Below are positions 1,807-53,274 of a stretch of 64,000 nucleotides of DNA, piece by piece; positions within the stretch are counted from its first letter, which is position 1; every line of letters starts with the position of its first letter. The notes beneath the pieces were generated by a model, which searched no databases, had not been told where the DNA came from, and saw nothing but the letters and a program-made list of their open reading frames with translations. A program made the position numbers and the translations under genes. Location of the stretch: NCBI GenBank assembly GCA_964572175.1, contig CAZNEH010000002.1, positions 1,406-65,405 on the forward strand. The letters are read 5' to 3'. The stretch comes from an uncultured Gammaproteobacteria bacterium (GTDB taxonomy: Bacteria > Patescibacteriota > Patescibacteriia > UBA9570 > CAZNEH01).

Positions 1807-2082
1807 CTAAAGCATTGAAATAAATTGTGATGCTAACTGAACTTTCTGAAACCAGTTTTTATTTTTCTGAACGGTCTTTATTTTTTTTCTCTTAATTTGC
1901 TTAACCGGTTGAGCGTAGGCTCTCTTAATACTAGGTCCGAATAACTCGACTAATACTTTTTCCGGGGTATTAAGGAACTGTCCGATTGTTCTTATCTCCA
2001 AAGCTTTTAGAACCCTAGCGGTACGTTTTCCAATACCCGGAAGGTATTCTACTGGTAAATTAGATTTTTTGGAGTAAGACAT
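1807..2082 (-). CDS. helix-hairpin-helix DNA-binding protein (ComEA-like HhH)
   Basis: LPGIGKRTARVL is an HhH GIG motif. Small basic protein. Confidence 0.5.
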   Translation of the reverse strand: MSYSKKSNLPVEYLPGIGKRTARVLKALEIRTIGQFLNTPEKVLVELFGPSIKRAYAQPVKQIKRKKIKTVQKNKNWFQKVQLASQFISML

Positions 2083-2170: not shown

Positions 2171-2800
2171 TTAGGCGTTAAATTTTCTAATGATTCCAAC
2201 CACCTTACCCTGAATAATTACATTCTTAACTTTAAGCGGCTCATAGTTTTTATTTCTAGGTTGTAATCTAATATAATTTTTCTCTTTATGAAATTCTTTT
2301 AACGTTGCTGACCCATCTTCTAATAAGGCGACAACAATATCTCCGTTGCTTGCATAGTCTTTTTTCTCTACTACTACATAGTCTCCATCAGCAATTAAAC
2401 TTTCTACCATAGAGTCTCCCTTAACTCTTAACAAATATGTATTAGGATTTTTCACTAACTCTGGAGGTACGGCCATAGTCTCTGTCTTATCTTCTACAGC
2501 TTCGATTGGTTCACCTGCCGTAATTAATCCGGCTACTGGTAATCGATAAGCGGCGTCTTCATCAGTGTGTGTTTCTTCCATATCTGGGCTAGTGATCATG
2601 ATGTCTCTAGCCTTATTTTCACCCCTACTTAGATATCCACTTTCTTCTAATTCTTTTAAATGTTGATGAACCGTAGACTTAGAAGATACTTTTAGTTTTT
2701 TAGCTATTTCCTCTAAAGTGGGGGAATAACCGTTCTTTTGGATGTATTTAACTATAAAATCAATGATTTTCTTCTTCTTTGGGGTTAGTTGTGGAGACAT
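2171..2800 (-). CDS. lexA: LexA repressor (S24 peptidase)
   Basis: N-terminal winged-HTH. C-terminal S24 domain has the GDSM Ser nucleophile and a downstream Lys. Typical length of 209 aa. Confidence 0.9.
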   Translation of the reverse strand: MSPQLTPKKKKIIDFIVKYIQKNGYSPTLEEIAKKLKVSSKSTVHQHLKELEESGYLSRGENKARDIMITSPDMEETHTDEDAAYRLPVAGLITAGEPIEAVEDKTETMAVPPELVKNPNTYLLRVKGDSMVESLIADGDYVVVEKKDYASNGDIVVALLEDGSATLKEFHKEKNYIRLQPRNKNYEPLKVKNVIIQGKVVGIIRKFNA

Positions 2801-2822: not shown

Positions 2823-2851
2823 TGTTATCTTAAGAATACCCGAACAGAAAC
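2823..2851 (-). promoter_or_regulatory. lexA promoter (minus strand TTGACG-N17-TATTCT) with an embedded candidate SOS box GTTCGGTTTCTGTTCGG (GTTC-N7-GTTC)
   Basis: The reverse complement of 2823-2851 reads TTGACG TTCGGTTTCTGTTCGGG TATTCT. recA at 40394-40422 has the same architecture. Confidence 0.5.
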
Positions 2852-2898
2852 CGAACGTCAATAGCCACCTGTGGATAAAATGTTTATTAACTAATTAT

Positions 2899-2942: not shown

Positions 2943-3977
2943 ATGAATATTAAACAAAAACTAAAAATATTAGGCCAAGCTGCGGCTCACGACACTTGTG
3001 ATCCTGGTTGTAAATTATTAAAAGTATTAATGAGTAATGCTTGTGTTAATAATTGTAAATATTGTGCTTCTCGCCGCGAAAACAATATCGAAAGAGCAAC
3101 ATTCGAACCTGAAGAATTAGCCAGACTTTTTATGCAGCTCGTTAGAAAAAAATGGGTCTATGGAATTTTTCTAAGCTCAGCCGTCATCGGTACGACAAAC
3201 TACACCATGAAGCAAATGATCCAATGTGTATATCTAATTCGTAGTTGGGGATTTGGCGGATACATTCATCTAAAAGTTTTACCTGGCGCCGGCGAAGATA
3301 TTTTAGAGTATGCTTCTAAGTTAGTTGATCGCATGAGCGTAAACCTCGAAGCGCCTGGATCTAAATTTTTAAAACAAACCTGCCCAGACAAAAATTATTA
3401 CTCTGACCTACTCAAGCCCATGCAGTTTAATAAGACTTTAAATTTAAATCATGGCCAAACCACTCAAATGGTCGTGGGTGCCACTGACGAGCGTGATCAA
3501 GATATTTTAGATGTTTCCGACAATCTTTATTCTGACATGAAACTTAAGCGAGTTTACTATTCTGCTTTTCAACCTATTAACCAAGAGGGTCAAGGCGGGG
3601 TTCTTCCGCCATCTAGAGCCAAACGAGAATGGCGTCTTTATCAGGCCGATGCTTTATTACGATTTTATGGGTTCAACAAACAAGACTTTGTTTATAATGA
3701 TAAAAAGAATCTATACCTTACCATGGACCCCAAACAAGCCTGGGCTAAACAAAATTTATCCAAACCCATAGAAATTAACCAAGCTGATCGCGACTTATTA
3801 ATGAAAATACCCGGAATCGGCCCTAAAACGGCTGACAACATCTTAGATTTTCGTAAATCCAAGTGCATTACCCAAGATTATGAGCTAAAAAAGCTTAAAT
3901 TAAATATTCCCAAAGCTAGAGATTACCTTTTATTACAAGGGAAGATGTTGCCACAGCAGTTGACCTTTTTGTCATAA
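2943..3977 (+). CDS. radical SAM protein with C-terminal HhH motif, putative DNA repair/modification rSAM; divergent from lexA
   Basis: CVNNCKYC is the CxxxCxxC radical-SAM motif. IPGIGPKTADNIL is an HhH motif. Start is taken at MNIKQ (2943), because the ORF-track N-terminus MERGWGRG is translation of the palindromic repeat. Confidence 0.7.
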   Translation: MNIKQKLKILGQAAAHDTCDPGCKLLKVLMSNACVNNCKYCASRRENNIERATFEPEELARLFMQLVRKKWVYGIFLSSAVIGTTNYTMKQMIQCVYLIRSWGFGGYIHLKVLPGAGEDILEYASKLVDRMSVNLEAPGSKFLKQTCPDKNYYSDLLKPMQFNKTLNLNHGQTTQMVVGATDERDQDILDVSDNLYSDMKLKRVYYSAFQPINQEGQGGVLPPSRAKREWRLYQADALLRFYGFNKQDFVYNDKKNLYLTMDPKQAWAKQNLSKPIEINQADRDLLMKIPGIGPKTADNILDFRKSKCITQDYELKKLKLNIPKARDYLLLQGKMLPQQLTFLS

Positions 3978-13970: not shown

Positions 13971-14011
13971 CCCCCTCTCCACGAAGGTGGAGAGGGGGCT
14001 AGGGGGTGAGG
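13971..14011 (+). repeat. GC-rich palindromic intergenic element, copy 2
   Basis: CCCCCTCTCCACGAAGGTGGAGAGGGGG + CTAGGGGGTGAGG. Confidence 0.7.
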
Positions 14012-15249: not shown

Positions 15250-15292
15250 TAGCTACCCTCTCCACGAAGGTGGAGAGGGGCTGGGGGAGAGG
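15250..15292 (+). repeat. GC-rich palindromic intergenic element, copy 3
   Basis: Near-identical to copy 1. Confidence 0.7.
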
Positions 15293-15326
15293 CAAGAGAG
15301 GAATCTGCATAACCTGTGGATAAAAA

Positions 15327-15366
15327 AGCTCCCTCTCCACGAAGGTGGAGAGGGCGGGGGGAGAGG
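15327..15366 (+). repeat. GC-rich palindromic intergenic element, copy 4 (tandem to copy 3, separated by a CCTGTGGATAAAA motif)
   Basis: Near-identical to copy 6 at 53235-53274. Confidence 0.7.
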
Positions 15367-24223: not shown

Positions 24224-27200
24224 GTGAAACAAACAAAAAACAAAAAATTAGCCCATCTTCTTAGCATTATATCTATCGCTGTTATCAGTGTTTTTTTATT
24301 TAGTTCTAGCCCAGTTCAAGCCGCAGTAGTAACTTGGGAGGGAGATGAAAGCGCCTTATGGAGTGTTGGGGGTAATTGGAGTAATGGTAGTGGTGTAGGA
24401 GCCGGAGACATTGCTACTTTTGATGGTACTGGAAATACGGCTTGTACTATTGATGGCACAGCTAGTGTGGCTGGAATTGATATAAACTCAGGTTATACCA
24501 ATACTATTACTCAAGCTGCAGAATTAACGATTGGAAGTTCTCATTTCGACATTGCCTCCGGAACATTTACTGGTGCAACTCAAGATATTACTATAAGTGG
24601 GAACGTGGTTATTGCTGGGGGTATATTTAATAGTACCTCAGGAACAATTAGCTTTTCTGGAGACTGGACTCATACTGCTGGCGGAGAATGGAACGCGTTG
24701 ACAGGAACAGTAAAATTTACTGGTTACAGAGAAACTTTTAATTTTGATTATCCAACCATTGCCACCTCTGGGGTTTTTAATAATTTTACTTACGATAGTA
24801 CAAGTGACTCCGGTTCTTATGTGAGTTTATCAGGAGACACTTTATATATTAATGGTAATGCTCTTTTTTACGATGGCAGATGTTATAATGGTGCAGGCAT
24901 TCAAGTTCAAGGAGATGTTACTATAGGACCCTGGGATGGCTATGATACTACGGACGCTTCTTTAACTTTTTCTGGAACAGGAACTCAAACTTTTGATTTA
25001 ACTGGGTACACAGGTTCTTGGGATGCTCATACAATTATTGGAACTGGTTCAAATTCTCCAACAGTAAACTTAGCTTCAGATTTTATAATAAATAAAAGTA
25101 CCCAAGATTTAACCATTACTAATGGAAGTTTAAATATCGGAGCCTATGAATTAGAAGTGGTAGACGATACAAATATAGCCGGAGGAACCTTAAATGGTGA
25201 CACCGGGACCTTGGATTTGTATGATGTGATCATTACAGATGGAACCCTTAATGGAACGACCGGAGATTTTAATTTTTCCGGAGATTGGACTCATACTGCC
25301 GGCGGAATCTGGAATCACAATAATGGGTTAGTGACATTTGATGGTTATAGAGAGACTTTTAATTCCAATTATCCTACTATTTCTTCTTCTGGAGTTTTTT
25401 ATAATTTGACTATTAATAACTCAGGCGAAACTGGTGGTTATTTTTCTATCTCCACAGGAGATAGTATTTATGTTAATAATGACCTAAATTTTACTAATGG
25501 TAGATTTAATGTTGGTACATCAGTGGTTGTTCAGGGAGACGTTACAGTTGCCTCTACTTGGGATGGTTTTAACAATACAGATGCCGAATTAATTTTTGCT
25601 GGCTCTGATCCTCAAACTTTTGATCTTACTGGCGGTACCGGAACAATAAATTCAAACATTACTATTGGTACAGGATCTTCAACTCCAACTGTTAATTTAG
25701 TCTCAGACTTAATCATGAATTATGGCTCACAAGACTTAACCGTTCTTGCTGGCACTCTAAATGCATCAACTTACGAAATTGAAGTCATCGATGACTTAAC
25801 AGTCTCTGGTGGAGTTCTTAATGCTGCCTCTGCTAATTTAGACTTAGAAGATTTAATTATTACAGATGGAACTTTTAATGCACCCACTGGAACCATGTAT
25901 ATTTCTGGTAACTGGACCCACACTGCTGGTGGAGTGTTTAATAATAATAGTGGGACCGTTATGTGGGACGGTGCTGGTGCTCACACTTGGAATTTTGACA
26001 AAGCTTCATATGCTACTTCTGGTGTATTTAATAATGTTACATTTGATTGTAATGGCACGGGAACCGTATGTGGCGGAGGTTCTAATTATGTGAGCGTGTC
26101 AGCAGGAGACACTATATATCTAGATGGGGATTTAGAAATTCCTGATGGAAGAATACTTGGCTCAACATCAACTATTGAGGTTTCAGGAGATGTTACTATT
26201 GGAGCGAATTGTTATAGTTATGACACTAATGATGCTGATTTAGTTTTTGCAGGTTCATCACCACAAACATTTGATCTGACTGGTGCTGAGGCTTTATTTA
26301 ATTCTGATATATCAATAGGTACTGCAACTTCGACTCCTACAGTTAATTTGGTCTCTAATTTAACCATGGATCTTTGGGATCAAGATTTAGATATTATCGA
26401 AGGAACTTTAAATTTGAACGGATACGATATTGATTTAGATAATCAATCTGCTAATCATATTACCGTTGAAGATGGCGGAGTCTTTGCTTGGAAGGGAACA
26501 GAGACTCTAGCTCTTAATTCTGGAGACCCAATTTTAAATTCAGGAAGTACTGTCCAATATAACCCAACCACTGGAACAGTTAGTACTCAAGATTGGGGCT
26601 ATCATCATTTAGCAGTAGCCTCTACCGGAGGAGCAATTGTTCAACTTGGAACCACTGAAGCACTAGCCGGAGATTTAAGTATTGACTCTGGAACATTTTC
26701 TCTTAATGGCCAGTCCTTATCAGTGACTGGTACATTTAGTAACGATGGAGCCTTACGTTTAATTGGAACAGAAAGTCCATCCTTAACCAATGATACCGAC
26801 AGTGGAGCAATAGAATATATTGGAGACAATGATTCTGGAATAGATAGCTACACCTTAGGTTTTAGCTCTTATTATGGTCTAATTATTAATAGTAGCGATG
26901 GAGCTGATGATACTTTTCAACTAGCCAGTGACACAGATATTGATGGAAGCCTAACTAACACTGCTGGCACCTTGGATGTGACCACCAATAATTATCAAAT
27001 CAATGTCGCTGGTAATTGGGCTAATGGCGGAGGAACATTTAATCCTCGTTCCGGAGCTGTTGTTTTAGACGGTACCAGCCAAGCTATTTCTGGAACTAAT
27101 ACTTTTTATAAATTAACTAAACAAGTTGGCTCTGCAGATACTCTTACTTTACCAGCTAGTACCACTACTACTGTTTCCAATCTTTTAACTTTACAAGGAA

Positions 27201-31936: not shown

Positions 31937-33631
31937 ATGAAAAAAGATCAAATCGCCATTTTAGACTTTGGCTCTCAATACACCCACCTCATTTGCCGTC
32001 GCTTGCGTCAACTTGGGGTGCAAGCAAAAATTTACCCGCCTACTATCGATACTAAAACTCTCCAGCGTGCCTGGGGAATTATTTTATCTGGTGGTCCCGC
32101 CAGTGTTAATAACAAGGCTATTCCCTTTAATGCCGCAGTTTTTAAGCAAAAAGTCCCTGTTTTAGGCCTCTGTTATGGTCATCAATTAATTACAGACTAT
32201 TTTGGTGGCAAAGTAGAACACGGCACTAACAAAGAATACGGACAGGCAAAAGTAAGTTTCAAAGAAGATATTTTATTAAAAGGTCTTCAGAAGAGCGAGC
32301 AGGTCTGGATGAGTCATTGGGACGTAGTCACTAAACTTCCGCCTAATTTTAAATCCCTTTCTAAAGACAATTCCGCGATCGTTAACTTAGAAGACAAGAT
32401 TTGGGGTTTACAATTTCATCCTGAAGTTCATCACACTCCAAACGGTCTAAGAATTTTTGCTAATTTTATCAAGATCTGTGGAGCAAAGAAAACCTGGAAC
32501 ATAAAATCTCTAAAAAATAAAATAATTAAAGAAATTCGTGCTACGGCTGGCAAGAAAAAAGTCTTTTTATTAGTTTCCGGAGGAGTAGATTCTACGGTAG
32601 CCTTTGCTTTACTAGAAAAAGCCTTAGGCAAAGACAGAGTTTATGGTTTTCATGTCGACAATGGCTTTATGCGCTTAGATGAAAGTAGTAAAGTAAAAAA
32701 GTTTTTAGCCAAAGCTGGATTTGACGACTTGAAGGTTTATAATGGAGAGCAAAGATTCCTAAAGGCAGTTAAGGGAGCAATAGATCCAGAAGAAAAAAGA
32801 AAAATAATAGGAGAGTTATTTGTCGAAATTGCTAACGAAGAAATGGCTAAGCTAGATATTGATAATTACTTGTTAGGTCAGGGGACTATTTACCCAGACA
32901 CTATCGAGTCTGGAGGCACCGAGCATGCCGACAAAATTAAAACTCATCATAATCGGGTCGACTTGATCCAAGAAATGATTGACCAAGGTAAAATCATCGA
33001 ACCTTTAAAAGATTTATATAAAGACGAAGTTAGAGAACTGGGTAAAGAATTAGGAATTAGTAAAGCCCTGCTAGAGCGTCATCCTTTTCCTGGTCCAGGC
33101 TTAGCAATTAGGGCATTATGTTCAAATGGCAAAGATCCTATTAAGAGCGTGGGAGTTCAAGGAGATGAACGTTCTTATAAAGAACCAGCTATTATTACAA
33201 AACTAGCTAGTTTTAAGCAACTTAACAAAAAATCAATAGCCATCACTAATAACAGTGATAAAGTAAATAGAGTATTATATTTAACTTATCCACAAAAATT
33301 AAGAAAATTAAAAACACATCCCAAGACTTTAACTAAAGATAGACTAGATTTATTGCGTCAAGCAGACGACATTGTAATGAAATTCATTAAGAGAGAAAAG
33401 ATTTCTAAAGAAATATGGCAATTTCCTACTGTTTTGCTACCTTTAGGCCAGAAAGGAGAGTCTTTAGTTCTTCGGCCAATAGAGTCTAAAGAAGCCATGA
33501 CTGTGAATTTCTACTCCATGAAAAAGGCTTTATTAAACAAATTAGTCAAAGAATTAGCTAAATTAAGCGAAATTGACTATATTTTCTACGATATCACCAA
33601 TAAACCTCCCGGCACTATTGAATGGGAGTGA
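31937..33631 (+). CDS. guaA: GMP synthase (glutamine-hydrolysing)
   Basis: GATase (GLCYGHQL), ATP-PPase SGGVDS P-loop, and the C-terminal PPGTIEWE. Confidence 0.92.
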   Translation: MKKDQIAILDFGSQYTHLICRRLRQLGVQAKIYPPTIDTKTLQRAWGIILSGGPASVNNKAIPFNAAVFKQKVPVLGLCYGHQLITDYFGGKVEHGTNKEYGQAKVSFKEDILLKGLQKSEQVWMSHWDVVTKLPPNFKSLSKDNSAIVNLEDKIWGLQFHPEVHHTPNGLRIFANFIKICGAKKTWNIKSLKNKIIKEIRATAGKKKVFLLVSGGVDSTVAFALLEKALGKDRVYGFHVDNGFMRLDESSKVKKFLAKAGFDDLKVYNGEQRFLKAVKGAIDPEEKRKIIGELFVEIANEEMAKLDIDNYLLGQGTIYPDTIESGGTEHADKIKTHHNRVDLIQEMIDQGKIIEPLKDLYKDEVRELGKELGISKALLERHPFPGPGLAIRALCSNGKDPIKSVGVQGDERSYKEPAIITKLASFKQLNKKSIAITNNSDKVNRVLYLTYPQKLRKLKTHPKTLTKDRLDLLRQADDIVMKFIKREKISKEIWQFPTVLLPLGQKGESLVLRPIESKEAMTVNFYSMKKALLNKLVKELAKLSEIDYIFYDITNKPPGTIEWE

Positions 33632-37500: not shown

Positions 37501-37539
37501 CCCCCTCTCCAGACGTGGAGAGGGGGTTTGGGGGTGAGG
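37501..37539 (+). repeat. GC-rich palindromic intergenic element, copy 5
   Basis: CCCCCTCTCCAGACGTGGAGAGGGGG + TTTGGGGGTGAGG. Followed by TGCTATAAT at 37548-37556. Confidence 0.7.
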
Positions 37540-37586: not shown

Positions 37587-39740
37587 ATGGCTCGAAAAAA
37601 AACAGAAGACAAAAGAAAAAGGAGAAAGCGCGAAGAGGAGGAAGAAGACGATAAATTAATTAGTCCAGAAACTCAAAAAGGCATTGCTATTGTAGTTCTT
37701 TTTGCTGCGGCTTTAATCAGTATTTTATCTATGGCTGGCATGGCTGGAACTGGTGGAGAGTGGCTATCAAAAAGTTTTAAAGCCTTTTTTGGCTGGGGTG
37801 GATTTTTATTTCCCCTAGTTTTATTAATTTTAGGCTATTGTCTAATTTACCCAGATCGATACCGGATAAAAATTACTAACTGGATTGGCTTAGTTTTATT
37901 TTTTCTCAGTGCTTATGGATTCTTAAATATAGTCGGTGATGCTGGCGGATATTTAGGCGTAGTTTTAAGTTATCCTTTACAGCAATTACTAGGTTTTTGG
38001 GGTGCTTTAATTTTGATTATTGCTTTAGTAGTTGTTTCTTTATTATTATTATTTAATCTATCTATTCAAAGATTATTTTCTGGTCGAGATATCGCCTCAG
38101 ATTGGTTTTGGAAAATTAAAATGCTTTGGCTAAAATTATTTTCTAAGAACGACGAAGAGCCCGAGTCTCCTGACGAGGGTGAAGATGAAGAAGATATAGA
38201 ATTCAATGACCGTGAAATTAAAGAAGGAGATGAAGACGAAGATCCAGAACAGTTAGAGCTTATTGAAAAACCAAAAAAACGACCTTCTCGAAAAATTAAA
38301 TTACCAACTAATTTATTAGACAATAAAAAAGACAAGCCTCATGGCGGTAATATTGATTTAAATAAAGAAAAGATTCAGCATACTTTAGATAATTTTGGCA
38401 TTGATGTAGAAATGGGAGACGTTGAAGTTGGCCCAACTGTTACTCAGTACACCCTTAAGCCAGCTGAAGGCATTAAGCTATCTAAAATTATTACCTTAAA
38501 TAACGATCTCTCTTTAGCTTTAGCTGCTCATCCACTTAGAATAGAAGCTCCTATTCCAGGTAAGTCTTTAGTGGGCATTGAAGTTCCAAATAAAACCAAA
38601 GCTGTTATTGGCTTACGAGAGATCTTAGAGTCAAATGATTTTAAATCTTCTGATGCAGACCTAAAACTAGGCATGGGCGTAGATGTAACTGGCACCAGTT
38701 ATTTAGTTGATTTAGCCAAGATGCCTCATATGCTTATTGCTGGAGCCACTGGTTCTGGTAAATCTGTATGCATTAACTCTATTATTGTTAACTTGCTTTA
38801 TCAGTATGGACCAGATGATTTAAAAATAATTTTAGTAGATCCTAAACGTGTAGAATTCTCTCTATACAACGATATTCCTCATTTATTAACCCCAGTTATT
38901 ACCCAAGTAGACAAAACCATTAATGCTTTAAAATGGGTAGTTGCCGAAATGGATCGTCGTTACGAGCTTTTATCTCAAGCTGGAAAACGTGATATTAAAA
39001 GTTACAACAACTCTAATCCAGACCAGAATATGCCTTACTTAGTTCTCGTAATCGATGAATTAGCCGACCTTATGTCTACTGCTGCCCGCGATGTAGAAGC
39101 CGCTATTGTTCGCTTAGCTCAAATGGCTCGCGCCGTGGGTATTCATTTAATCTTAGCTACTCAGCGTCCTTCTGTAGATGTGATCACTGGTTTAATTAAG
39201 GCTAATATTACTTCTAGAGTTGCCTTCAACGTAGCCTCTATTACTGACTCTCGAACAATTTTAGATGGCGCTGGAGCCGAGAAGCTTCTAGGAAAAGGTG
39301 ACATGCTTTATGTTTCTGCCGAGCTTTCCAAGCCTAAACGCTTACAAGGCGCTTTACTGCACGAAAAAGAAATTCAACGCATTGTTAAATATCTTAAAGA
39401 CCAAGCTAAGCCAGAATACGACGAAGAAGTTACTGAAAGACAAGCTTCTCACTCTTCTCATGGCGGAAATTCCGCTGGCACTTCAGACGAGGAAGAAGAT
39501 GAATTACTTAGTGAAGCTAAAGAAGTTATTTTAAATGCTGGTAAAGCCTCAGCTTCTTTATTGCAGCGACGCTTACGCATAGGATATGCTAGAGCTGCTC
39601 GTATCTTAGATATTTTAGAAGAACATGGTTTTATTGGTCCGGCTGACGGAGCTAAACCAAGAGAGCTTTTGGCTCAATCCGAGGGAGTAGAGACAGAGGA
39701 GGGCTTTGAAGAAGATGAAGAAGAACATGACCAAGTTTAA
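37587..39740 (+). CDS. ftsK: DNA translocase FtsK/SpoIIIE
   Basis: N-terminal TM helices, Walker A GATGSGKS, Walker B VLVIDELAD, C-terminal gamma winged-helix. Start at MARKK (37587). Confidence 0.9.
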   Translation: MARKKTEDKRKRRKREEEEEDDKLISPETQKGIAIVVLFAAALISILSMAGMAGTGGEWLSKSFKAFFGWGGFLFPLVLLILGYCLIYPDRYRIKITNWIGLVLFFLSAYGFLNIVGDAGGYLGVVLSYPLQQLLGFWGALILIIALVVVSLLLLFNLSIQRLFSGRDIASDWFWKIKMLWLKLFSKNDEEPESPDEGEDEEDIEFNDREIKEGDEDEDPEQLELIEKPKKRPSRKIKLPTNLLDNKKDKPHGGNIDLNKEKIQHTLDNFGIDVEMGDVEVGPTVTQYTLKPAEGIKLSKIITLNNDLSLALAAHPLRIEAPIPGKSLVGIEVPNKTKAVIGLREILESNDFKSSDADLKLGMGVDVTGTSYLVDLAKMPHMLIAGATGSGKSVCINSIIVNLLYQYGPDDLKIILVDPKRVEFSLYNDIPHLLTPVITQVDKTINALKWVVAEMDRRYELLSQAGKRDIKSYNNSNPDQNMPYLVLVIDELADLMSTAARDVEAAIVRLAQMARAVGIHLILATQRPSVDVITGLIKANITSRVAFNVASITDSRTILDGAGAEKLLGKGDMLYVSAELSKPKRLQGALLHEKEIQRIVKYLKDQAKPEYDEEVTERQASHSSHGGNSAGTSDEEEDELLSEAKEVILNAGKASASLLQRRLRIGYARAARILDILEEHGFIGPADGAKPRELLAQSEGVETEEGFEEDEEEHDQV

Positions 39741-40392
39741 TCAAAAAAATATCAGCGCCCCTACTTTAGGGGAAAAATTATATCAGGTTCGCCAAGCTCA
39801 AGAGCTATCTCTCGAAGAAATTAGCTCTAAGGTTAAAGTTAAAAAAGAATACTTAGAATATCTAGAAAAAGGTCAGTATGATTTATTGCCCAGCGCTGTT
39901 TTTGTTGAAAATTATTTAAAAGTTTATTCTCAATTTCTACATTTACCATGGGATAAAGTTAAACAAGTTTATCAAGAAGAACAACTTGCTTTTAAACAAT
40001 CTCCAGAGCCCCCTAAACAATCTGCTAAGCATCACGGCCGCCCAGCCTTACTTCTTCCTAAGTTTATAACCCTAGCCTTAGTCTTTATAATTTTACTAGT
40101 TTTCTTTATTTATTTAGGCTTGCAGATTAATAATTTTTTACAACCCCCTTCTTTAGAATTAAGCAGTCCTACAGACAATATCACTATAGATGAGCGTTTT
40201 ATCGAGGTTACTGGTAAAACCGCTCCAGAGGCCCAAATTTTGATAAATAACCAGGAAATAGCTGTCGACAAAGAGGGTCAGTTTAATGAATTAGTGTCTT
40301 TACAGCCAGGATTAAATACCCTGGAAATAACTGCTAAAACCAAACATAGTAGGGAACAGGTTGTTTATAAACAGATCGTTGTGGATAACTAA
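39727..40392 (+). CDS. RodZ-like protein (N-terminal HTH, TM segment, C-terminal DUF4115-like domain); start uncertain (39706/39715/39727)
   Basis: LGEKLYQVRQAQELSLEEIS...LEYLEKGQYDLLP matches the RodZ HTH. Confidence 0.55.
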   Translation: MTKFNQKNISAPTLGEKLYQVRQAQELSLEEISSKVKVKKEYLEYLEKGQYDLLPSAVFVENYLKVYSQFLHLPWDKVKQVYQEEQLAFKQSPEPPKQSAKHHGRPALLLPKFITLALVFIILLVFFIYLGLQINNFLQPPSLELSSPTDNITIDERFIEVTGKTAPEAQILINNQEIAVDKEGQFNELVSLQPGLNTLEITAKTKHSREQVVYKQIVVDN

Positions 40393-40393
40393 A

Positions 40394-40422
40394 TTGACGT
40401 TCGGCTTTTGTTCGGTTATGAT
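40394..40422 (+). promoter_or_regulatory. recA promoter TTGACG-N17-TATGAT with an embedded candidate SOS box GTTCGGCTTTTGTTCGG (GTTC-N7-GTTC)
   Basis: 15 of 17 positions identical to the lexA box, in the same position between -35 and -10. Confidence 0.55.
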
Positions 40423-40457
40423 GTACACAGAGTTAGTTCCCTCTTAATAATTAGTAA

Positions 40458-40477
40458 AGACGCGATTAATCGCGTCT
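40458..40477 (+). promoter_or_regulatory. 20-nt perfect palindrome AGACGCGATTAATCGCGTCT in the recA 5' UTR
   Basis: Same core as the recA terminator. Lies 9 nt upstream of the ATG, with no SD between. Confidence 0.5.
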
Positions 40478-40486
40478 CAACAAAAA

Positions 40487-41494
40487 ATGAGTAAAACAAA
40501 ACAAGACTCCCGCGGTAAGGCCGCTCAAGAGGCTATCGACCAAATTAAAGAAAAATTTGGCGAAGGTTCTATTATGAAGCTGGGCGAGGCTAAGCAAATG
40601 AAAGTAGAATCAGTTCCTACTGGTTGCCTATCCTTAGACTTAGCCCTAGGAATAGGTGGCGTCCCTCGAGGTAGGATTATTGAAATCTATGGGCCAGAAT
40701 CTTCTGGTAAAACTACCTTGTCTCAACACATTGTCGCCGAGGTTCAAAAACTAGGTGGCACCGCTGCCTTCATAGATGCTGAGCATGCCCTAGATCCAGA
40801 CTACGCAGCTAACATTGGAGTGGACACTAAAAACTTACTTATTTCTCAGCCAGATACTGGGGAACAAGCTTTAGAAATTTTAGAAACTTTAGTTCGTTCT
40901 AACGGGGTAGACGTAATCGTTGTTGATTCCGTGGCTGCTCTTACTCCTAGAGCTGAAATAGAAGGGGACATGGGTGCTTCACACATGGGTCTACAAGCTC
41001 GTTTAATGAGTCAAGCATTAAGAAAATTAGCTGGGATAGTGTCTAAAACAAATACCTCTATCATTTTTATTAATCAGATTAGAATGAAGATTGGAGTCAT
41101 GTTTGGTAATCCGGAAACAACTACTGGTGGAAATGCTTTAAAGTTTTATTCCTCAGTACGTATCGAAGTTCGCAGAGCCGCTCAAATTAAAAAAGGAGAC
41201 CAAATCATTGGTAACCGAACCAAGGCTAAAGTAGTAAAAAATAAAGTTGCTGCTCCTTTTAGAACTACTGAGTTCGACATCATGTATAACGAAGGAATTT
41301 CTATTGCTGGCGACATGCTAGACACAGGCGTCCAATTTGGAGTTATTAATAAATCAGGTAATACCTACACCTATAAAGATAAAAAATTAGGAGTAGGTCG
41401 AGAAAATTCTAAAACTACTTTAAAAGCAGATAAAAAACTATTAGAAGCAGTTCGTAAAGAAGTTATAGAAGTAGTTGAAAAAGCAGAAGAATAG
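40487..41494 (+). CDS. recA: recombinase RecA
   Basis: GPESSGKTT Walker A, L1/L2 loops, full length. Confidence 0.97.
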
Positions 41495-41507: not shown

Positions 41508-41547
41508 AAAAAGTAGAGACGCGATTAATCGCGTCTCTACTTTTTTT
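41508..41547. terminator. bidirectional intrinsic terminator (long perfect palindrome AAAAGTAGAGACGCGATT|AATCGCGTCTCTACTTTT)
   Basis: A-run, a 14-bp stem, then a T-run. Serves recA (+) and the convergent minus-strand gene. Confidence 0.8.
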
Positions 41548-53234: not shown

Positions 53235-53274
53235 AGCTCCCTCTCCACGAAGGTGGAGAGGGCGGGGGGAGAGG
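53235..53274 (+). repeat. GC-rich palindromic intergenic element, copy 6
   Basis: CCCTCTCCACGAAGGTGGAGAGGG + CGGGGGGAGAGG. Confidence 0.7.

Follow-up and report, generated by a model that had tools for sequence, protein, structure and literature searches.

A putative LexA operator between the −35- and −10-like hexamers of recA in a Patescibacteria bacterium

We propose that a direct repeat in the recA promoter region is the SOS operator of this gene in an uncultured Patescibacteria (CPR) bacterium, that it would be bound by LexA, and that lexA would be autoregulated. We assign a probability of about 85% to this reading, for which we draw on promoter sequences. The recA box is, as far as these sequences tell, an ordinary DNA damage (SOS) switch element in a lineage-specific form. 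Taken alone, this would be a routine annotation, i.e., recA and lexA of a CPR bacterium under putative LexA control. For a LexA clade distributed among Kerfeldbacteria-like Patescibacteria, the comparison with related genomes moreover yields a precise, testable motif, TTCGG-nTTTTn-TTCGG, and it corrects the tempting but mistaken equation of this box with the alphaproteobacterial GTTC-N7-GTTC.

A direct repeat fills the spacer of the predicted recA promoter

We analyzed a stretch of DNA of 64 kb, which as a whole is referred to as the window. Its recA gene is bona fide, with a product 75–83% identical to Patescibacteria RecA, and the box with its two hexamers lies 65 nt upstream of the recA ATG at 40487. 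The region comprises the following features:

39706–40392, plus strand: rodZ-like HTH_25 gene upstream of recA, assigned by domain match
40394–40399, plus strand: −35-like hexamer TTGACG of recA, found by the promoter scan; T-GAC stands at the same position in 12/12 aligned promoters
40399–40415, plus strand: proposed LexA operator of recA, GTTCGGCTTTTGTTCGG; top matrix match in the window
40400–40404 and 40411–40415, plus strand: operator half-sites TTCGG, a direct repeat with an 11-bp period
40417–40422, plus strand: −10-like hexamer TATGAT of recA; TAnnnT in 12/12 aligned promoters, always one base past the box
40487–41494, plus strand: recA coding sequence, 335 amino acids (Pfam RecA, E = 2.7e-138, and RecA_C)

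From 40394 to 40422 the DNA reads TTGACG-TTCGGCTTTTGTTCGG-T-TATGAT, and the promoter scan returned identical hexamers with a 17-nt spacer and 10/12 consensus matches. Promoter-like sites called by consensus alone were not above chance in the region (5 found vs 7.1 expected). The bases and coordinates that the initial annotation had given for TTGACG, the box and TATGAT were all correct when we re-read the sequence. The box had further been described as overlapping the −35 and −10 hexamers. Its position between the two hexamers was confirmed and recurs in 12 lexA/recA promoters of related CPR genomes, but the overlap is restricted to a single base: the 5′ G of the box is the last base of TTGACG, and the box then fills the spacer and stops one base short of TATGAT.

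The recA box had also been presented as one of two operator copies common to lexA and recA. This holds, and the second copy lies in the lexA promoter:

2171–2800, minus strand: lexA, 209 amino acids, with a winged-HTH DNA-binding domain and an S24 autopeptidase domain (TIGR00498, Pfam)
2833–2861, minus strand: lexA promoter, read from the sequence as TTGACG, a 17-nt spacer and TATTCT
2840–2856, minus strand: sister operator in the lexA promoter, GTTCGGTTTCTGTTCGG; second-best matrix match in the window

The recA box ATTGACGTTCGGCTTTTGTTCGGTTATGAT and the lexA box ATTGACGTTCGGTTTCTGTTCGGGTATTCT are far more alike than the short pattern GTTC-N7-GTTC demands.

One promoter layout recurs in related CPR genomes

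We compared the recA loci of species-representative genomes, 80 in total. Only alphaproteobacterial loci had an exact GTTC-N7-GTTC in front of recA, the expected positive control for this class, and many CPR loci of this set had unrelated recA promoters. The sole CPR locus among the 80 with the same layout was L067 (UBA6017), with TTGACA-GTACGGCTTTTGTTCGG-C-TATACT. RecA identity predicted poorly which LexA a genome carries, and LexA itself served better as a guide. A metagenome scan with LexA gave four loci, two of them distinct, and further loci were retrieved by exact-protein look-ups. All lexA loci recovered in this way (L081, L082–84, L093, L094, L095 and L096; LexA 54–94% identical) have the box in their own promoter, and further recA promoters with the box were found in L067, L090, L092 and L097.

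Twelve lexA/recA promoters from ten related CPR genomes could be aligned in one fixed layout with a 17-nt spacer, i.e., T-GAC, a purine, TTCGG, nTTTTn, TTCGG, one base and TAnnnT in 12/12, where the sampled sites are phylogenetically non-independent. Over 20 sites, TTCGG was invariant in both halves save for one TACGG (L067), GG followed TTC in 20/20, and the spacer was nTTTT. The base before TTCGG was G in 9/20 first repeats and 15/20 second repeats. From these column counts we define the operator as a direct repeat, TTCGG-N6-TTCGG, with an 11-bp period, and its full conserved core as TTCGG-nTTTTn-TTCGG. The definition as GTTC-N7-GTTC in the initial annotation has to be replaced, since its leading G is the variable position, and the TTCGG halves and the TTTT spacer are conserved.

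Differences between the window and its closest relative, L096, are found in the linker that precedes the −35 hexamer and at one spacer base of the box, and they spare the half-sites, the −35 and the −10. In L082, L092, L093, L094, L095 and L097 we found an extra box 38–39 bp upstream, and inverted copies are located upstream in L081 and downstream of the −10 hexamer in L094. Because box copies thus also occur outside the spacer and in both orientations, the box is better described as a portable operator than as mere promoter spacer sequence. Other lexA genes similarly have more than one SOS box.

The distribution of the box over the two genes varies. Where lexA and recA loci came from the same contig, both genes carry it in the pairs L090/L093 and L092/L095, and only lexA does in L091/L094 (JACPGJ01). 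The lexA gene of L094 has three boxes, though recA of the same contig (L091) has none. In L085, L088, L089 and L091, the nearest sampled RecA relatives that lack the box, recA has no separate promoter and follows a rodZ-like gene at a distance of 8–37 nt. We hence conclude from these promoterless recA genes and the three-box lexA that this lineage can dispense with LexA control of recA, which is patchily distributed, and that its SOS regulon appears to be minimal and quickly changing. In these reduced genomes the regulon looks very small and unstable, with lexA and a small ORF resembling the thumb of DNA polymerase IV, sometimes recA, and possibly a radical SAM repair gene (see below).

The CPR box compared with known LexA boxes

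LexA motifs are known to differ from phylum to phylum, and some are direct repeats, as is GTTC-N7-GTTC of Alphaproteobacteria (PMC8565304). It could be argued that the window carries a true alphaproteobacterial LexA box, with lexA and its motif either acquired laterally from Alphaproteobacteria or inherited in common with them. Both window sites match GTTC-N7-GTTC literally, and in Alphaproteobacteria and Acidobacterium capsulatum this box likewise lies in the promoters of lexA and recA, as a direct repeat of 11-bp period. Moreover, a published precedent exists for lateral acquisition of the alphaproteobacterial lexA, as proposed for A. capsulatum (Mazon 2006, cited in PMC7739468). However, the alphaproteobacterial class has a conserved tetranucleotide GTTC that includes the G, and no further conserved flank, whereas in the CPR box it is this G that varies (9/20 and 15/20), and GG after TTC as well as the TTTT spacer are invariant. 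The alphaproteobacterial recA sites in our control loci had neither the GG extension nor a T-rich spacer. The protein points indirectly in the same direction, as the best 120 source-named LexA homologs were all labelled Patescibacteria, Kerfeldbacteria or unclassified bacterium, and the best solved relative of LexA was chain 3k2z. An alphaproteobacterial origin of the box is therefore quite unlikely. We regard the CPR box as working like the alphaproteobacterial direct-repeat LexA box without being a member of that class.

Two further classes share single properties with the CPR operator. In the Gram-positive Cheo/DinR box, CGAAC-N4-GTTCG, the right half corresponds to the CPR half-site (G)TTCG(G), and the CPR half-site (G/A)TTCGG looks closer to this GTTCG half. 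The Firmicutes recA loci among our controls carried palindromic GAAC-N4-GTTC. However, the Cheo box is an inverted repeat with a 4-bp gap, whereas the CPR box is arranged head-to-tail with an 11-bp period and lacks dyad symmetry, which sets it outside this class. The SOS boxes of E. coli recA and lexA, CTGT-N8-ACAG, are unrelated in sequence and symmetry. They follow the same logic, i.e., they also lie inside core promoters and act by occlusion, with relief by RecA-stimulated self-cleavage of LexA.

The LexA of the window is a complete protein. It scored 198.9 bits against the NCBIfam equivalog TIGR00498 (cutoff 110.95) and matched Pfam LexA_DNA_bind and Peptidase_S24. Its cleavage site A95-G96 and the residues S130 and K168 are invariant, as are the helix residues S40, T43, V44, H45 and H47. 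The recognition helix reads SKSTVHQHLKEL in CPR LexA vs SPNAAEEHLKAL in E. coli. We take this helix (STVHQHL) to be closer to that of B. subtilis LexA (STVHGHL) than to the alphaproteobacterial SGIHRLI. Chain 3k2z is presumably Thermotoga maritima LexA. Compared with 3k2z, the hinge of the CPR LexA is about ten residues longer, variable and acidic, and this longer hinge could make a head-to-tail placement of the two DNA-binding domains possible. The lineage is a probable independent case of a LexA switch from a palindromic to a direct-repeat operator in which a Gram-positive-like half-site was kept. Such a switch is relevant to the question of how the DNA-binding domains of a dimeric repressor can be re-oriented. 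The best-matching relatives of both RecA and LexA were from Patescibacteria/CPR metagenome-assembled genomes, several of them labelled Kerfeldbacteria, Falkowbacteria or Buchananbacteria.

The SOS network in Patescibacteria was reportedly described by Sanchez-Osuna, Barbe and Erill in 2017 (Environ Microbiol 19:3465, doi 10.1111/1462-2920.13826). That study concerns the same superphylum and the same question, and it probably covers this kind of element; if its motif equals TTCGG-N6-TTCGG, the recA site is another instance of it. Kilic et al. 2020 (PMC7739468) list this Patescibacteria study among the cases of direct-repeat LexA recognition. Our literature search for a TTCGG half-site or a restated Patescibacteria LexA motif returned nothing relevant. 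We treat the recA site as another case of a known kind and do not claim the motif as new.

Proposed control of recA and lexA by LexA

Both the recA and the lexA box contain two TTCGG half-sites, a two-fold repeat that fits a dimer. The period of 11 bp places the two half-sites on one face of the helix, which implies head-to-tail binding as in the alphaproteobacterial box. We infer that LexA is the binding protein from the logic of autoregulation and from the site at recA. TTGACG and TATGAT would form the active promoter, with a predicted transcription start near 40428–40430, and repression would work by occlusion. In this mechanism, a LexA dimer would bind the direct repeat TTCGG-N6-TTCGG (40400–40415), which fills the 17-nt spacer, and would thereby keep RNA polymerase off the recA promoter. 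Upon DNA damage, RecA filaments would stimulate self-cleavage of LexA at Ala95-Gly96 via the Ser130/Lys168 dyad, the operator would be vacated and recA induced. As lexA has the same operator in the same position, we propose that it is autoregulated.

Another regulator might occupy the box, or the box might be the spacer signature of a specialized promoter class, and in both cases it would belong to a different stress circuit. The same promoter module contains a second conserved element, TTATCCACAGG (see below), which makes the action of at least one more factor at this module probable. Nevertheless, in every phylum studied, LexA operators are recognized by a site conserved both at recA and at the gene of the repressor itself (PMC8565304), and the dimer-like repeat fits LexA. 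The copies outside the spacer and in both orientations argue against a spacer signature, and in about 100 kb of lineage loci we found the box at no gene other than lexA and recA. We hence hold a regulator other than LexA, or a mere promoter signature, to be improbable, and retain LexA as the proposed binding protein.

The extended motif exceeds chance expectation

In the window, GTTC-N7-GTTC had three matches vs 1.34 expected, and 15/100 shuffles reached three, i.e., the short pattern was not significant. It was rejected as a motif definition because it is at chance level in the window and contradicted by the column counts. Its match at 24303–24317 on the plus strand, GTTCTAGCCCAGTTC, was dismissed as a chance match: it is intragenic near the protein N-terminus, lacks the GG extension and the T-rich spacer, and has a low matrix score. 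In contrast, the 17-mer GTTCGG-N5-GTTCGG was present in two perfect copies in 64 kb vs 0.00 expected, and none of 100 shuffles contained any. Both copies are in the promoters of recA and lexA, hallmark SOS genes, and with two mismatches allowed the whole window yielded no sites beyond these two.

We built a weight matrix from 15 sites, all of them from other genomes and none from the window. Within the window, its top-scoring site was the recA box with 27.8 bits, followed by the lexA box with 23.7 bits. The next-best window match reached 11.6 bits, and 200 random windows gave at most 19.1 bits. Besides the recA and lexA sites, the matrix scan of the window gave no further regulon members above 12 bits. 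In about 100 kb of lineage loci, all matches above 23 bits were lexA or recA promoters, and the best match in about 500 kb of control loci was intragenic, with 20.3 bits. A chance resemblance, or a relic site without present function at recA, is thus highly improbable, for although GTTC-N7-GTTC alone is at chance level and several close relatives lack a recA site, the extended motif appeared in 0/100 shuffles, the recA box exceeds the null maximum (27.8 vs 19.1 bits), and it keeps an undisturbed −35/−10 geometry, the same as in the lexA promoter.

A DnaA-box consensus accompanies the SOS promoters

The nonamer TTATCCACA, which matches the DnaA-box consensus TTATNCACA perfectly, is found upstream of both promoters:

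2870–2878, minus strand: perfect DnaA-box consensus TTATCCACA, a 9-mer match, 8 nt upstream of the lexA −35 hexamer
40380–40388, minus strand: perfect DnaA-box consensus TTATCCACA in inverted orientation, with 5 nt between it and the −35 hexamer of recA downstream; it overlaps the final codons of the rodZ-like gene

The window contains four copies vs 0.59 expected, a number reached by 0/100 shuffles. Two of the four flank the −35 hexamers of lexA and recA; the others are located at 15315–15323 (minus strand) and 33286–33294 (plus strand). Across 94 kb of lineage loci there were nine copies vs about 0.7 expected, eight of them in lexA/recA SOS modules. These eight (modules of L081, L082 and L092–L097) are placed exactly between the distal box and the −35 hexamer and are usually extended to TTATCCACAGG. 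In L082, L092, L093, L094, L095 and L097, the distal and proximal LexA boxes start 38–39 bp apart with TTATCCACAGG between them. Both promoters of the window, and L096, have lost the distal box and kept TTATCCACA. Two CPR genomes that have no TTCGG box, L002 (at 2739) and L005 (at 2906), likewise carry the nonamer in front of recA. A role of TTATCCACA as a promoter element used throughout these genomes was rejected, given that 8/9 lineage copies are in SOS modules. As a third LexA repeat, TTATCCACAGG was rejected as well, as it has no TTCGG match in register.

Co-regulation by DnaA and LexA has been described for the E. coli uvrB, recN and dinJ promoters, where DnaA boxes lie beside LexA boxes (Wurihan 2018, PMC6015884; PMC8203912). 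The DnaA box adjoins the LexA box in these promoters, as TTATCCACA abuts the −35 hexamers of recA and lexA in the window. In contrast to these E. coli genes, it is the master genes lexA and recA that carry the box in the CPR lineage, as one perfect 9-mer in a fixed position between two LexA boxes. We tentatively suggest, at odds that we would place below even, that the lexA and recA promoters are composite modules of the form [distal LexA box]-TTATCCACAGG-[−35/proximal LexA box/−10], in which DnaA would directly co-regulate both genes. If true, these minimal genomes would integrate replication-initiator status and DNA damage at the highest level of the SOS hierarchy. The conserved DnaA box in these promoters may in this way tie the SOS regulon to replication control.

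Gene neighborhoods of lexA and recA

Two genes flank lexA:

1807–2082, minus strand: small ORF of 91 amino acids directly downstream of lexA and co-oriented with it; its similarity is confined to the thumb/HhH segment of DNA polymerase IV (IMS_HHH_1, weak matches)
2943–3977, plus strand: radical SAM and HhH gene, divergent from lexA; TIGR03916-like (putative DNA modification/repair) with 316.6 bits, just under the cutoff of 343.5

The small ORF is probably the second gene of a lexA operon. Homologous small ORFs follow lexA in L093 (5635–5919), L094 (5640–5948) and L095 (5698–5928), with lengths of 76–102 amino acids overall. In L096 (1789–2712), a deletion of about 80 nt fuses the small ORF in frame to lexA and gives a 307-residue protein, which points to a functional link between the two. 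On the other side, lexA and the radical SAM gene have a 142-nt control region with the LexA box and the DnaA box in common, and the same divergent pairing is found in L096 (612–1646). The radical SAM repair gene may thus be part of the LexA regulon.

A GC-richer segment (650–1723 in the window, 2801–3814 in L096) has ORFs of more than 330 amino acids on both strands. The plus-strand ORF encodes a PNP_UDP_1 phosphorylase. The minus-strand ORF has no family match and probably represents a shadow ORF, although the related public contig has it annotated as a gene. A 337-residue gene called beside lexA in L096 was rejected as a shadow ORF antisense to the phosphorylase gene.

The gene order ftsK, rodZ-like gene, recA, mamF-like gene, groEL is conserved in relatives. 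Our scan of the window found no terminator-like site between the rodZ-like gene and recA, so read-through may give a basal, LexA-independent expression of recA. Two hairpin elements frame the recA coding sequence:

40459–40476, plus strand: perfect palindrome of 18 nt, GACGCGATTAATCGCGTC, within the predicted 5′ leader of recA and separated from the ATG by 10 nt
41508–41545, plus strand: terminator-like hairpin of recA from the promoter/terminator scan, a 17-bp stem followed by a T run, which holds the second GACGCGATTAATCGCGTC

The palindrome occurs exactly twice in 64 kb, i.e., in the recA leader and in the recA terminator (41518–41535). The leader fold has an energy of −14.9 kcal/mol (z = −3.9). 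An Rfam search of the window at gathering thresholds gave no matches, so the leader hairpin fits no known RNA family.

A further, GC-rich intergenic hairpin, CCCTCTCCAC-loop-GTGGAGAGGG, is repeated in the window at 2904–2928, 13973–13996, 15256–15279, 15331–15354, 37515–37524 and 53239–53262. Its 10-mer core had 11 matches vs 0.03 expected, and one copy is located between the lexA promoter and the radical SAM gene. In mechanical ORF calls this hairpin gives rise to spurious N-terminal extensions starting with MERG.
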